Source: a virus (lineage: Duplodnaviria > Caudoviricetes). Taken from it: DNA of 28,879 nucleotides. Position 1 is the stretch's first letter. Each line of letters begins with the position of its first letter. Positions 552 through 15,147 of the stretch are shown in pieces. The stretch covers positions 1 through 28,879 of IMG/VR virus record IMGVR_UViG_3300025103_000114. One strand, written 5' to 3'. A program made the position numbers and the translations under genes. The notes beneath the pieces were generated by a model. That model worked only from the letters and a program-made list of their open reading frames with translations, was not told the DNA's origin and ran no database searches.

Positions 552-812
552 ATGAGAACGATTGTTCATGTTAATCAGGGCAACATTCGGCAGAACATCA
601 AGCGTGATCCGAATGATCGACTGCCAGTGCTGAGAGCGCAGGGAGACTTTGATACTTTGTATGGGGATCATATTGATATTATTGATCCCGATACTAATGA
701 GGTTATAGCATCAGTAGTGTATCGCCCTGATGATCCTCTCTCTTGTGGAGCGAGAGTCTGGATCGAGACTGACAACGATGTAGTAGTAGGAGAAAATAAA
801 TGCAGCCACTAA
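552..812 (+). CDS. Conserved phage hypothetical protein
   Basis: GAGG RBS; HVNQ..IR.N and PLSCGARVWIET signature recalled from many phage hypotheticals. Confidence 0.85.
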   Translation: MRTIVHVNQGNIRQNIKRDPNDRLPVLRAQGDFDTLYGDHIDIIDPDTNEVIASVVYRPDDPLSCGARVWIETDNDVVVGENKCSH

Positions 813-1525
813 ATTACAATGAGTCCAAAGAGATTGTTGGATCATTCTCTAACACCAGTAAAATGCCAGGATCTTCTACAGGTTTGAGTGCATTATTGTG
901 TGGAGTTGGTAGCAAACTCAGGAAGATTGTAGGCTCTGTATGCTACGACTGTTATGCACTCAAGGGTATGTATAGGATGCCAAACGTGAAGAATGCTCAT
1001 GCTAAACGAGAGGCAGGTATCTCTCATCCTAGATGGGTTGAAGCGTTTGTAGTTATGCTCAATCATCACGCCAGTTTTGCAGTACCATACTTTAGATGGC
1101 ATGACTCTGGTGATATCAGGAGTGTCGAGCATTTCGCTAAGATCTGTGAGATATGCGTTATGAGTCCACATATTAGGCACTGGATACCTACCAGAGAGAA
1201 CAAGATCATCAGTGAGTATGTACGTCTAGGTGGATTGATCCCAGATAACTTATGTGTGAGATTGTCTGCTCCTATGGTTGATCAAGGTCCAGTTAAGACT
1301 GTGGACTACAATACTTCTACAGTGCATAATCCTCTTACAAAGTGGGTAGGTAAAGAGTGTCAGGCTTATCGTACTAGTAAGGATGGTAAGATCATGGCAA
1401 GAGAAGTATACTTAGAATTGACAGATGAAGAGAGGAAGGCGTATAAGAAGACTTCAGGATATTGCGGTTCATGCCGTGATTGTTGGAGCAAGGATGTTCC
1501 TAATGTTAGCTACCTCATACACTAG
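800..1525 (+). CDS. GP88-like Cys-rich protein (putative Fe-S / radical-SAM-like fold)
   Basis: AGGAG RBS; SKMPG, C34-x13-C48-x2-C51-YA, FRWHDSGD, N..VRLS, C-terminal CxxCxxCW and terminal His. Confidence 0.75.
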   Translation: MQPLNYNESKEIVGSFSNTSKMPGSSTGLSALLCGVGSKLRKIVGSVCYDCYALKGMYRMPNVKNAHAKREAGISHPRWVEAFVVMLNHHASFAVPYFRWHDSGDIRSVEHFAKICEICVMSPHIRHWIPTRENKIISEYVRLGGLIPDNLCVRLSAPMVDQGPVKTVDYNTSTVHNPLTKWVGKECQAYRTSKDGKIMAREVYLELTDEERKAYKKTSGYCGSCRDCWSKDVPNVSYLIH

Positions 1526-1537
1526 AAAGGAAATACA

Positions 1538-2488
1538 ATGAGTGTTGCGAGTTTATTAATGGCAGGTTTTCCTTGTCAGGATTTATCCATTGGCGGGAAA
1601 GGTGCGGGACTTTCAGGTGCAAGGTCAGGGCTTTTTTATGATGCTTTGCGTGTACATGAGATGCTTAACCCTGATTACTTTCTCTATGAGAATGTCGCTT
1701 CTATGAAGAGACAAGATAGAGACATCATCTCTAAAGAGATTGGAGTTGAGCCTATCGAGATCAACAGCAACCTAGTCAGCGCACAAAACAGGCGTAGGCT
1801 TTACTGGACTAACATACCGTATGCTGGATTACCAGAAGATCGTGGAGTGTTGCTCAAGCATATACTAGAGACTAACGTAGACCCAAAGTATCTAGCAGGA
1901 CAAAAGCTTCTGGATAATTATGCTGGAGGTAATCAGTTGAATCCTGACTACAAATCTCAGGCAAATACAATACACGATCATAATAAGAAAAGTCCTTGCA
2001 TAGCTGCTGGCACTCATGGGTATGCGATTGGTTATGTAGATGCTGAACACTTTAAGTATGGTGATATGGAAGAGGTGATGGTCAATTCTAAGAAGTGGCG
2101 TAAGCTATCTCCTCTTGAGTGTGAGAGATTGCAGACACTGCCAGACAACTATACCAATCATGTATCCAATACTCAGAGGTACAAGATGATTGGCAATGGA
2201 TATACAGTAGATGTTATAGGTCATATACTAAAAGGTCTTCCCGAAGATATCGATACAGTCTATAGTTTATTTGATGGTTGCTCGATGGGTCAAATGGCAT
2301 TGATCCGAATAGGGAAACTTACTGCTGACTACAGGTACTTTAGCAGTGAGGTAGACAAGTATGCCATAGCTGTAACCCAAGCTAACTTCCCTGAAACTAT
2401 ACAGCTTGGGAATATTCAAAACGTAACTTTATGTGACATAACTAAAAAAGGAAGATGGGATGAGGATTTCAGTGAGAACAGCGTCTAA
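1538..2488 (+). CDS. DNA (cytosine-5)-methyltransferase, circularly permuted
   Basis: AAAGGA RBS; motif IV GFPCQ (aa10-14), VI ENV (51-53), VIII QNRRR (83-87), IX RKLSPLECERLQ, X YKMIGNG, followed by motif I SLFDG (243-247), II SEVD (270-273), III GNI (291-293). Confidence 0.92.
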   Translation: MSVASLLMAGFPCQDLSIGGKGAGLSGARSGLFYDALRVHEMLNPDYFLYENVASMKRQDRDIISKEIGVEPIEINSNLVSAQNRRRLYWTNIPYAGLPEDRGVLLKHILETNVDPKYLAGQKLLDNYAGGNQLNPDYKSQANTIHDHNKKSPCIAAGTHGYAIGYVDAEHFKYGDMEEVMVNSKKWRKLSPLECERLQTLPDNYTNHVSNTQRYKMIGNGYTVDVIGHILKGLPEDIDTVYSLFDGCSMGQMALIRIGKLTADYRYFSSEVDKYAIAVTQANFPETIQLGNIQNVTLCDITKKGRWDEDFSENSV

Positions 2489-4713: not shown

Positions 4714-5109
4714 ATGAAAAGAGTATTGACAAGAGCAGATTTTGATAAGCTACAACAGAGAAGAGAGAGAAGAAAGAAAGCAATGTATACTGACTTTAAA
4801 CACTACCAGAAGTGGACCAAGACTACTGCAATTTATAAGCAGGAGATTATTTATCCAGCCTTAGAGTTAGCAGGTGAAGCTGGAGAAGTATGTAACCAGG
4901 TCAAGAAAATATGGCGAGATGATGATGGAGTTGTATCACCACATAGACGAATAGACTTAGAGAAAGAACTAGGGGATTGTCTCTGGGCTTTAGCTAGACT
5001 AGTCGATGATCTTGGTTTAGACTTTAACAAGGTTGCAGAGAATAACGTAGCCAAGCTGGAAGATCGCAAGGCTAGGAATGTTATCGGTGGTTCAGGGGAT
5101 AAGAGATGA
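4714..5109 (+). CDS. mazG: MazG-like nucleoside triphosphate pyrophosphohydrolase
   Basis: LAGEAGEV..KK..RD and EKELGDCLW acidic motifs; C-terminal KL.DRK.R..I.GSGD.R typical of phage MazG. Confidence 0.92.
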   Translation: MKRVLTRADFDKLQQRRERRKKAMYTDFKHYQKWTKTTAIYKQEIIYPALELAGEAGEVCNQVKKIWRDDDGVVSPHRRIDLEKELGDCLWALARLVDDLGLDFNKVAENNVAKLEDRKARNVIGGSGDKR

Positions 5110-7422: not shown

Positions 7423-7483
7423 TAGTATACTATATAATATATATAATATTAATATAATATAATAATATATAAGGATATATAAT
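7423..7483. repeat. AT-only tract with repeated TATAAT; candidate origin/unwinding element
   Basis: Palindrome TAGTATACTA 7423-7432; 42 consecutive A/T at 7431-7472; TATAAT at 7433, 7442, 7453, 7458, 7478. Confidence 0.6.
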
Positions 7484-7919
7484 GTTATTAGAAAACTCTA
7501 TATTAAAAGTAGGTGCAGCATTAACTTGTCTAGCACAGAATATTTATTTCGAGTCGCGTGATCAATCTACAGTTGGTCAGATAGCTGTAGCAGAAGTTAC
7601 TTTAAATCGCGTGGCAGACCCACGTTGGCCTAATGATGTTTGCTCAGTTGTAAAGCAAGGACCAACCTACAGGTGGAAGAAGACCTATCCAATTAAACAT
7701 AAGTGTGAGTTCTCTTGGTACTGTGATGGTAAATCAGATGAACCAAAGAATGTAAATGCGTGGAAAAAATCTATGCAGGTAGCTAGATATGTTTATCATA
7801 GTGATGGGAAAATGAGGATAGTAGAAGACGCAAAATATTTCCATGCTAAATATATAGACCCAGGATGGACAAAATTAAAAAAGGTTATTACTATCGGCGA
7901 TCACATATTTTATAAGTGA
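7482..7919 (+). CDS. SleB/Hydrolase_2 family cell-wall hydrolase
   Basis: CLA.NIYFESR (catalytic Glu), AVA.V.LNRV, C.VV.Q, C.FSW.CDG, IG.HIFY. Confidence 0.92.
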   Translation: MLLENSILKVGAALTCLAQNIYFESRDQSTVGQIAVAEVTLNRVADPRWPNDVCSVVKQGPTYRWKKTYPIKHKCEFSWYCDGKSDEPKNVNAWKKSMQVARYVYHSDGKMRIVEDAKYFHAKYIDPGWTKLKKVITIGDHIFYK

Positions 7920-13277: not shown

Positions 13278-13454
13278 ATGGTAGTATTTGTTAGAATAGC
13301 TGCTAACGTAGACAGGGATGCTTCATGGATTCCTGCCGACGGAGCAAGGGGATTAGAGACTGAGCTAAAAGACTTAATCTCTTCATCAATTAAAGACTGC
13401 ATAGATGGTTTAGAAATTACACGTATAAAGGTTATAACAGATGACGACATTTAA
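13278..13454 (+). CDS. 58-aa hypothetical protein (not in ORF track)
   Basis: MVVFVRIAANVDRDASWIPADGARGLETELKDLISSSIKDCIDGLEITRIKVITDDDI*; fills the gap and overlaps the RNR start. Confidence 0.7.
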   Translation: MVVFVRIAANVDRDASWIPADGARGLETELKDLISSSIKDCIDGLEITRIKVITDDDI

Positions 13455-15147
13455 ATCTAATATGAATCCTATGTTTCGTTCTAAATTCTCTGAAGATATT
13501 TTTCATCTAAAGTATGCCCATACTGGTTGTGATACTTGGGAACAACTAGCTAGAGTACTAGTAGAAGATGTATGTGGAAAGCTACGCCCTGATGAAGAAG
13601 CTTTAATGCGTAAGGAAGAACGTAAAGAGTTACAAAGATATATTACTGAGTTAAAATTTGTTCCTGGTGGGCGTTATATTTATTATGCTGGTAGGGAAAG
13701 ACGTTTTTATAACAACTGTTTCTTGTTGTCTGCTGAAGAAGACACAAGGGAAGATTGGGCTAATCTTAGTTGGAAATCTGAATCCTGTCTTATGACGGGT
13801 GGTGGTATAGGAATTGACTACTCTATTTATAGAGAGTCAGGAAGATCATTGGGTGGCTCTGGTGGACTAGCGTCTGGCCCTATACCTAAAATGCAGATGA
13901 TTAACTCCATCGGAGCCAATGTCATGCAAGGTGGGTCACGTAGGTCTGCTATGTATGCATCTCTTAATTGGAAGCATAATGATATCCCTAGCTTCTTGAC
14001 TGCTAAAGATTGGGATACAATGCCTGTAGGTGATACAGGATTTACCCTTAAACAGATTAAAGAACAGGACTTTAACTTTCGCGCCCCTCTAGACATGACT
14101 AATATTAGTGTAAATTATGATACAGAGTGGTTGTTAAACTACTGGAAGACAGGAGATGTTGGTGAGGTATTTAAAAGCAATGTTAAGCAAGCACTTAGAT
14201 CAGCGGAACCTGGGTTTAGTTTTAATTTTATGGACAATGAAAAGGAAACCCTAAGAAATGCCTGTACTGAAGTTACTTCTGCTGATGACAGTGATGTGTG
14301 CAATTTGGGGAGTATTAATTTGGGACGTATTGACTCGATTTCAGAATTAGCAAGAGTAGTCGAGTTAGGAACCAAGTTTTTACTGTGTGGTACATTAAAA
14401 GCAGAGCTACCCTACGAGAAAGTGTATTCAATTAGGCAAAAAAATAGACGTTTAGGATTAGGTCTAATGGGTATGCATGAATGGTTAGTAAAGAGAGGAG
14501 AAAAATATGAAGTTACCCCAGAGTTACATAAATGGCTGTCGGTGTATAAAGGAATCAGTGATGACATCTCTAAGAAATTTTCTGATGAGTTGTCGATATC
14601 AAGACCCGTTGCAAACAGGGCTATTGCTCCTACTGGCTCTATTAGCATTCTCGCTGGTAGCTCCAGTGGGATAGAACCTATCTTTGCTGTAGCATATAAA
14701 CGTAGATACCTGACAGGTGGTACTAGGTGGAAGTATCAGTATGTTATTGATGCAGCCGCACAAGAATTAATAGATATGTATGGTGCTAATCCTGATAAGA
14801 TAGAGTCTGCATTAGATTTAGCAGATGACTACGAAAGAAGGATTAAGTTTCAAGCTGATGTTCAGGACTATGTGGACATGAGTATTAGCTCTACTATTAA
14901 TCTACCTTCTTGGGGGTCTAAATTTAACAATCAAGATACAGTAGATGAGTTTGCTAACACATTAGCTTCTTATGCTCACCGTTTAAGAGGGTTTACTGCT
15001 TATCCAGATGGATGCAGAGGTGGACAACCCCTCTCTGTAGTACCATATAGTGAAGCAATAGATAAGTTAGGAACAGAATTTGAAGAACACGTTGAGACAC
15101 ATGATATCTGTGATATTACCAACTCAGGAGGAGTATGTGGCGTATAA
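13441..15147 (+). CDS. nrdJ: Class II (adenosylcobalamin-dependent) ribonucleotide reductase
   Basis: PGGR, NNCF, GGGIG, RRSA, EPG, NACTE (radical Cys), CNLGSIN, RRLGLG, APTGSIS, GIEP, C-terminal Cys pair; no beta subunit adjacent. Confidence 0.88.
   Translation: MTTFKSNMNPMFRSKFSEDIFHLKYAHTGCDTWEQLARVLVEDVCGKLRPDEEALMRKEERKELQRYITELKFVPGGRYIYYAGRERRFYNNCFLLSAEEDTREDWANLSWKSESCLMTGGGIGIDYSIYRESGRSLGGSGGLASGPIPKMQMINSIGANVMQGGSRRSAMYASLNWKHNDIPSFLTAKDWDTMPVGDTGFTLKQIKEQDFNFRAPLDMTNISVNYDTEWLLNYWKTGDVGEVFKSNVKQALRSAEPGFSFNFMDNEKETLRNACTEVTSADDSDVCNLGSINLGRIDSISELARVVELGTKFLLCGTLKAELPYEKVYSIRQKNRRLGLGLMGMHEWLVKRGEKYEVTPELHKWLSVYKGISDDISKKFSDELSISRPVANRAIAPTGSISILAGSSSGIEPIFAVAYKRRYLTGGTRWKYQYVIDAAAQELIDMYGANPDKIESALDLADDYERRIKFQADVQDYVDMSISSTINLPSWGSKFNNQDTVDEFANTLASYAHRLRGFTAYPDGCRGGQPLSVVPYSEAIDKLGTEFEEHVETHDICDITNSGGVCGV

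Follow-up and report, generated by a model that had tools for sequence, protein, structure and literature searches.

A predicted circularly permuted C5-cytosine DNA methyltransferase, opened between motifs III and IV, in an HMO-2011-like marine podovirus

Results

Organization of the methyltransferase gene

The window analysed in this study is the whole 28,879-nucleotide stretch of the IMG/VR record IMGVR_UViG_3300025103_000114, and its features of interest are collected in Table 1. It was found that a single open frame encodes a C5-cytosine DNA methyltransferase of 316 amino acids in which the motifs run in the order IV-VI-VIII-TRD-IX-X-linker-I-II-III. An earlier note on this DNA had described an uninterrupted frame with its own ribosome binding site, whose protein starts just before motif IV and ends with motifs I, II and III, and this description was borne out by the sequence and by block profiles. 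The upstream gene has its stop codon at 1523-1525, and 6 nt separate the AAGGA site from the ATG of the methylase. The PC, ENV and RxR signatures were all found together with the SAM-binding motifs I, II, III and X, and all catalytic residues are present. The chain does not follow the canonical I-to-X order (class C of Samokhina and Alexeevski).

Table 1. Features of the permuted methyltransferase gene and its upstream neighbour (positions in the window)
Feature	Position	Strand	Details and basis
Circularly permuted C5-cytosine DNA methyltransferase gene	1538..2488	+	Order IV-X then I-III; profiles, block scan, model
RBS-like site AAGGA, immediately 3' of the gp88-like gene stop	1527..1531	+	Sequence; DNA alignment with L002, L086
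Motif IV GFPC	1565..1576	+	Residues 10-13, catalytic Cys13; sequence
Motif VI YENV	1685..1696	+	Residues 50-53, Glu51; sequence
Motif VIII QNRRR	1784..1798	+	Residues 83-87, Arg85 and Arg87; sequence
Variable region, one putative target-recognition module	1817..2089	+	89 aa between blocks; low model confidence
Motif IX	2099..2134	+	Residues 188-199; sequence
Motif X GNGYT plus helix	2192..2230	+	Residues 219-223 (GNGYT); sequence, model
X-to-I linker, old C-terminus to old N-terminus	2231..2248	+	About residues 232-237; model
Motif I SLFDG	2264..2278	+	Residues 243-247, strand beta-1; sequence
Motif II SEVD	2345..2356	+	Residues 270-273, Glu271; sequence
Motif III GNI and following helix, last conserved element	2408..2452	+	Residues 291-293 (GNI), Asn292; sequence, model
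gp88-like gene (PF17338), upstream neighbour kept in the marine clade	800..1525	+	Pfam, relative loci

Two matches to PF00145 in swapped order had been predicted, and they were obtained: residues 6-233 correspond to profile positions 64-321 (E 1.7e-33, 116.8 bits with a cut-off of 22), and the C-terminal piece alone corresponds to profile positions 3-55 (E 0.0029, 17.5 bits, below the 22-bit cut-off). Since the match over IV-X clears the cut-off unaided, standard annotation conceals the motif order. The score with TIGR00675 was 112.3 bits, above its curated cut-off of 100.65. Block profiles built from 198 canonical relatives fell on the protein in the order IV-VIII, IX-X, I-III, and the motif I-III block scored the C-terminal piece at E 6e-25. 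In all six frames of the window these profiles revealed no further motif I-III block or methylase piece (best other E 3), confirming the earlier statement that no motif I lies upstream. The C-terminal 70 aa alone gave no match among PDB sequences at E 0.1. Two phage families of about 240 positions, phrog_16427 and phrog_17284, match the protein in one stretch across the X-to-I junction, which implies that split permuted forms are already present within public phage families.

The segment between motif X and motif I, HILKGLPEDIDTVY (residues 229-242), had been taken for the linker. A linker exists, but in the model it is shorter than claimed, with HIL forming the end of the motif X helix and IDTVY belonging to strand beta-1. 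The Asn at motif III in place of the usual Asp is likewise real but not notable: among 474 scored canonical relatives this position is occupied by Asn in 21 and by Ser in 46, which puts the residue within natural variation.

Integrity of the junction

The junction was checked on contigs, not raw reads, and four runs were compared with the window. Contig X1 is identical over 1300-2800, the whole gene included, but may be the window's own source. Contig X4, which comes from another study, is identical over 2175-2800 and thus bridges the region near 2230-2260, where the earlier note wanted spanning reads. Contigs X5 and X7 do not cross the X-to-I junction, and no joints or indels were seen there among the four contigs. 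The exact protein was found on eight contigs from three sources, and its sole full-length cluster variant differs by 1 residue.

Phage setting and gene neighbourhood

Sequence comparison identifies the window as part of a marine podovirus genome that is HMO-2011-like by its polymerase. Its family A DNA polymerase, whose best cultured matches are CRP-3, HTVC033P and HMO-2011 at 39-40% identity, carries an inserted DnaJ-type zinc finger (a weak PF00684 match at residues 307-348). Such an insertion is described as a hallmark of HMO-2011-type phages in the accessible text of PMC6918029. The window also encodes a ribonucleotide reductase (13441-15147), MazG (4714-5109) and a cell-wall hydrolase (7482-7919), which are typical of this phage group.

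The methylase lies among small early genes, upstream of the primase and helicase. Most flanking ORFs are small and unannotated, and no nuclease family was detected among them in Pfam or PHROGs. The slot is well kept in the marine clade to which the gene belongs, the same downstream neighbour being present in 7/7 relative loci tested and gp88 standing upstream in 5/7. The gp88-like gene, Cys-rich and functionally uncharacterised, stays beside the permuted methylase in relatives, where its identity is 83-88%. DNA comparison with two relatives (L002, L086) revealed that their gp88 gene is followed by two small ORFs and a motif-III-like leader before the strand that precedes motif IV is reached. 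The RBS-like site immediately 3' of the gp88 stop serves the methylase in the window and a different small ORF in the relatives. The start behind gp88 would represent a further trimming step, this direction being inferred.

Predicted structure

The AlphaFold model (pLDDT 82.6, pTM 0.84) was obtained on an alignment of 91 rows. This alignment was already in the permuted register, and the model is therefore not independent of the motif reading. Both conserved parts scored mostly near 90 and the variable region 40-67. The model closes an ordinary C5 fold with the motif I-III piece in its usual place, closure being the point that the earlier note wanted a structure prediction to check; it supports that reading and does not amount to proof. 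Residues 41-307 of the model, a stretch that includes the X-to-I junction, superpose unbroken on tobacco DRM (Z 18.9, rmsd 3.0, 213 aligned), and this one-piece superposition suggests that the motif I-III piece sits in its normal position. The Z scores were 17.2 for DNMT3 and 16.5 for M.HhaI. Model residues 1-264 correspond to DNMT3A 698-912, M.HhaI 69-327 and M.MpeI 123-393, and residues 1-237 to M.HaeIII 59-324; residue 1 aligns to M.HhaI 69, M.HaeIII 59 and M.MpeI 123. A Foldseek search against viral models returned C5 methylases only, with no named full-length permutant recognisable among them.

Distribution of the III/IV order

The pooled and de-duplicated census comprised 593 units, of which 76 are III/IV permutants. 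With the blocks re-ordered, these fall into clades of 30 (Clostridia), 29 and 13 (the marine clade of the window) and four singles. They occur in marine phage, in other phage and metagenome contigs and in Clostridia genomes including cultured isolates, among the carriers being Pseudoflavonifractor sp. 524-17, Flavonifractor sp. An92 and Robinsoniella peoriensis. The search for homologues with the same junction, proposed earlier for marine viromes, was thus successful in marine phage contigs and beyond, and the description of the class as rare was not borne out.

Two homology searches gave 235 proteins, namely 18 III/IV, 216 canonical and 1 partial duplication. When viral contigs were scanned with junction patterns, 101 loci were obtained, some of them overlapping. 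They include 12 III/IV permutants, 6 complete genes with the I/II cut and 4 with a variable-region cut, 4 truncated in-frame junctions and 1 partial fusion (TRD-IX-X plus a full enzyme). A further 61 loci carry separate canonical genes as tandem arrays with two to six members, 5 have no methylase, and a full in-frame fusion of two enzymes occurs on one contig. The metagenome scan (37/64 parts) yielded 139 loci with 93 tandem genes and 43 in-frame junction matches, the latter divided into 18 complete III/IV, 3 complete I/II, 1 false match and 21 truncated where the locus ends. One metagenome candidate for an I/II permutant (L280) was dropped as a false motif match. In the genome scan (23/64 parts) 20 of 70 loci had a complete III/IV gene, nearly all in Clostridia, besides 2 that are truncated where the locus ends and 1 that occupies two frames. 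The best 150 matches in a 50%-identity library included the window protein itself; the other 149 included 19 III/IV, 19 partial sequences with the junction, 3 variable-region cuts, 4 fusions and 1 I/II cut. Among cultured phages, none of the best 25 junction matches (357 more records were returned) was in one piece. Some Clostridia permutants (L186:2726-4831, P0365, P0334, P0270) have long C-terminal extensions after motif III.

The motifs are highly conserved among the 76 III/IV units: PC in 74, EN in 76, QxRxR in 74, F/YDG in 76, motif II in 75 and GN[GS] in 76. The pN/pS values among eight marine clade genes were 0.06, 0.14 and 0.18 for the three blocks. Between the window and its clade relatives dN was 0.07-0.29, with dS about 0.9 or more and saturated. 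These values indicate that the marine clade is under purifying selection.

Arrays, fusions and other permutants

The same family displays a variety of other arrangements. Canonical genes were observed head to tail in arrays that reach six or more members and in which stops and starts overlap (L097/L098/L169/L170, L122/L123, L151/L152/L179 and others). Two full methylases fused in frame were also observed, as were partial duplications in which TRD-IX-X precedes a full enzyme (L133:2348-4051; P0238, P0239; L225:3212-5014; L022:4950-6257, equivalent to P0044; P0236, P0242). Some marine phage C5 methylases are cut between motifs I and II, starting at motif II and ending just after motif I and its helix (L085, L088, L105, L106, L120, L137, L274, L313, L319), and these I/II-cut units form their own clade. 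Permutants of the variable-region type, with IX-X first, also occur in this phage family (L126, L131, L141, L150, L165; P0247, P0292, P0296). At one locus (L145:3043-4345) a separate motif I-III frame with an identical tail precedes a III/IV permutant, which may be a fresh duplication or an assembly repeat. The canonical sister group L011-L016, L020 has a degenerate motif I (SACDG for SLFDG) and is yet conserved. A canonical methylase at L133:4899-6863 (+) contains a long insertion that starts from the catalytic Cys and ends in His-Asn-Cys, presumably an intein.

Phylogeny of the permuted units

The sister of the marine clade is a canonical marine group (98 SH-aLRT; 99 in another tree), and the Clostridia III/IV clade has its own canonical sister group (100 SH-aLRT). 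The marine canonical sister genes end right after motif X, and their start corresponds to the C-terminal piece of the window protein (57% over 61 aa). Strict monophyly of the III/IV units was rejected, modestly (p-AU 0.031; LG+G4, 53-row subset). AU tests did not reject marine plus clade 2 (0.25), marine plus Clostridia (0.084) or all III/IV units plus five canonical sisters as one clade (p-AU 0.50). A Pro early in the linker is found in 69/76 III/IV, 5/5 I/II and 4/4 variable-region units (78/85 permutants) versus 63/496 canonical tails; it could reflect common descent or a structural need.

The putative recognition module of the window gene is also present in canonical-order relatives, occurring in 105 canonical units in a sample biased by the window query. 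Marine clade relatives carry this module with or without a second one. As VIII-TRD-IX is intact, permuted and canonical genes could still swap recognition modules. Two proteins (P0402, P0407) appear to be reciprocal hybrids of the marine permuted allele with a canonical sister, P0402 being without motifs I-III; both lie on short contigs and are possibly chimeric.

Discussion

The present study describes a methylase gene that is real and, as far as sequence and model indicate, probably functional. C5 enzymes bind SAM through motifs I, II, III and X and flip the target base; the Cys of motif IV attacks C6, the Glu of motif VI and the Arg residues of motif VIII assist, and the variable region reads the site. 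The permuted chain is predicted to fold into an ordinary C5 catalytic domain, and its chemistry is expected to be ordinary, with Cys13 attacking C6, help from Glu51 and Arg85/Arg87, and site recognition by the variable region. The enzyme would be expressed early in infection and would methylate the phage's own DNA, blunting host restriction enzymes. It is quite probable, judging from the conserved motifs and the model, that the window encodes a circularly permuted C5 methylase of an HMO-2011-like marine podovirus which is active, works as a monomer and protects phage DNA from host restriction. An attempt to read the target site from word depletion was abandoned. The window has a CG observed/expected ratio of 0.48 and few CCGG sites, but HTVC033P, in which no methylase is annotated within 1-30 kb, is more depleted (0.33, CCGG absent), so word depletion is not diagnostic of the target.

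Other explanations of the window gene have to be weighed against this. Methylase ends recur across many phages and draw chimeric joins, loose ends being seen at 1781-1815 and 2199, and the gene could in principle be an assembly chimera of two methylase genes. This reading is close to refuted by the second-study contig that crosses the junction without a difference, by the recurrence of the exact protein in three sources and by 12 diverged clade relatives that keep the junction with synonymous changes. It could also be that the clade is functional and the window copy is weakened or decaying after the loss of the leader and of one recognition module. No other clade member is as diverged as this copy (identity 61-64% in blocks I-III and IV-VIII), which forms the longest branch of the clade, has taken its start codon from the slot behind gp88, has lost the second module in frame relative to P0002 and has the Asn at motif III; since dS is saturated, room is left for a very recent decay. 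Every catalytic residue is nevertheless retained, and the start 12 residues before the Cys resembles that of other clades (9-10, from 13 units listed) and of active laboratory permutants. Moreover, 14 canonical relatives have the same module in an equally short variable region, and the only full-length cluster variant shows just the single-residue difference; decay is considered unlikely. More improbable still is the need for a partner, either in a dimer of the beta-class kind or through complementation by a host or phage methylase. Beta-class amino methyltransferases have the same IV-TRD-I order and are proposed, in the accessible text of PMC7544214, to need dimers. Against this, a single chain is enough to complete the fold in the model, which superposes on C5 enzymes that are monomeric, the TRD still lies between VIII and IX as in M.HhaI, and there is no second methylase piece in the window; the model gives no sign that a dimer is required.

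Regarding the origin of the permutation, the earlier proposal of tandem duplication followed by trimming is backed by the natural arrays, fusions and partial fusions of the same family. An in-frame fusion of two head-to-tail methylase genes would have created the X-to-I junction, and trimming would then have cut both ends back to the surface loop that separates motif III from motif IV. In clade relatives a motif-III-like N-terminal leader persists beside the C-terminal motif III, and the window gene, which lacks the leader, would be one trimming step further. From the trees, motif order has most likely changed more than once, either by repeated gain or by gain and reversal. The idea of several independent origins as an established fact was rejected, because the AU tests also fit one origin with reversals. 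A broader proposal, as apt to be right as wrong, is that motif order in the DNMT3-like phage methylase family has switched many times, perhaps in both directions, with arrays giving X-to-I fusions, trimming converging on 9-12 residues before the Cys in separate lineages, and permuted and canonical alleles continuing to recombine. It is also quite conceivable, though short of an even chance, that the X-to-I junction arose once long ago and then spread, was re-trimmed and partly reverted by recombination. The single clade of all III/IV units with five canonical sisters and the two clade pairs that the AU tests did not reject fit such a history, as do the Pro common to most permutants and to a minority of canonical tails and the apparent reciprocal hybrids. 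The modest rejection of strict monophyly, the separate canonical sisters of the marine and Clostridia clades and the varying length and sequence of the X-to-I linkers speak against it, and the hybrids may themselves be assembly chimeras. If repeated switching is true, array, full fusion, partial fusion, redundant ends and trimmed permutants of three cut types would all be natural in one family, and the permutation-by-duplication model would be directly testable on natural genes.

The window gene is one member of a recurring class, and the family-wide set of natural intermediates is the stronger result. In the accessible text of Albert et al. 2018 (PMC5944983), 27 natural permutants are reported among 20,677 REBASE entries, every one of them opened within the variable region, and it is concluded that intact domains are favoured in nature. 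The motif I pattern printed there matches 0/76 III/IV units and 6/505 canonical units; with the space read as a wildcard it matches 13/76 III/IV units, which are the marine clade. The 2018 REBASE survey was thus largely blind to this family. The portions available to us of Woodcock et al. 2020 (PMC7544214) mention one alternative 5mC permutation, and those of the December 2025 version of Samokhina and Alexeevski (bioRxiv 10.1101/2023.12.13.571470) give only canonical and variable-region m5C classes. The earlier note would have given way had this order been an already catalogued common class; it is recurrent, with 76 units, but absent from the 2018, 2020 and 2025 surveys as far as their accessible text goes. 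No report of a natural III/IV C5 enzyme was found in full-text literature searches that covered mainly journals outside subscription. A conserved and selected family cut inside the catalytic domain contradicts the 2018 generalisation about the variable region and supplies natural counterparts for enzymes so far known from directed evolution. Together, the arrays and fusions offer a natural test bed for a change of protein topology with function kept.

Comparison with known enzymes

The closest canonical relatives are the phage orphan C5 methylases with an SLFDG motif I (phrog_116; Roseobacter phage CRP-9 gp12, Pelagibacter phage HTVC309P, L011-L020). They have the same motifs, 45-65% identity, the same early-gene location and recognition modules in common with the window enzyme, but run from I to X. 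Plant DRM (NtDRM 4onj/4onq, DRM2 7l4c) is the best structural match and has in common with the window enzyme an X-to-I junction and the DNMT3-like subfamily. Plant DRM begins at motif VI, with the order VI-X then I-V and IV-V at the end. Model residues 1-40 fall outside the DRM alignment, consistent with this order; in the window enzyme motif IV is N-terminal, and the DRM alignment covers only model residues 41-307. DRM is also eukaryotic and much larger, and is treated as a permuted Dnmt3 in the accessible text of PMC3227630.

The order IV-TRD-I of the beta-class amino methyltransferases, as given in the available part of PMC7544214, is also that of the window enzyme, but the latter has GFPC rather than the (D/N/S)PP(Y/F/W) of DPPY chemistry, a C5 instead of an amino target and a different lineage. 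In M.BssHII, M.Alw26I, M2.Eco31I, M.Esp3I and M2.BsaI (type H; class F or zeta) the cut lies within the variable region and IX-X opens the chain, according to the accessible text of PMC5944983 and 10.1101/2023.12.13.571470. Like the window enzyme they are natural C5 permutants with an X-to-I junction. The window chain, in contrast, starts 12 residues before the catalytic Cys, and its cut splits the catalytic domain between the SAM-binding and catalytic halves, with the TRD embedded.

The earlier note had spoken of a rare or undescribed permutation class. That the enzyme is a true III/IV circular permutant, distinct from the M.BssHII and DRM types, stands; 'undescribed' holds, within the literature searched, only for the natural enzyme, and the topology itself is not unknown because the III/IV cut was engineered and active. 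As stated in the available portions of Albert et al. 2018 (PMC5944983), cp122M.MpeI starts 13 residues before the catalytic Cys and was weakly active ('+' versus '+++' for a II/III cut), and active evolved M.HaeIII permutants started at 44, 46, 51, 54 and 58. The 2018 study also suggested that a cut close to the SAM pocket lowers the affinity for the cofactor. The laboratory III/IV permutants (cp122M.MpeI, M.HaeIII 51-58), which appear to correspond to the label 'type C', have the new N-terminus between motifs III and IV like the window enzyme, and the distance to the Cys is 13 residues in cp122M.MpeI and 12 in the window. The evolved M.HaeIII variants carried redundant peptides, as the clade relatives of the window gene appear to do. 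What sets the window enzyme apart from these laboratory permutants is that it is natural, belongs to a DNMT3-like phage subfamily and is conserved under selection.
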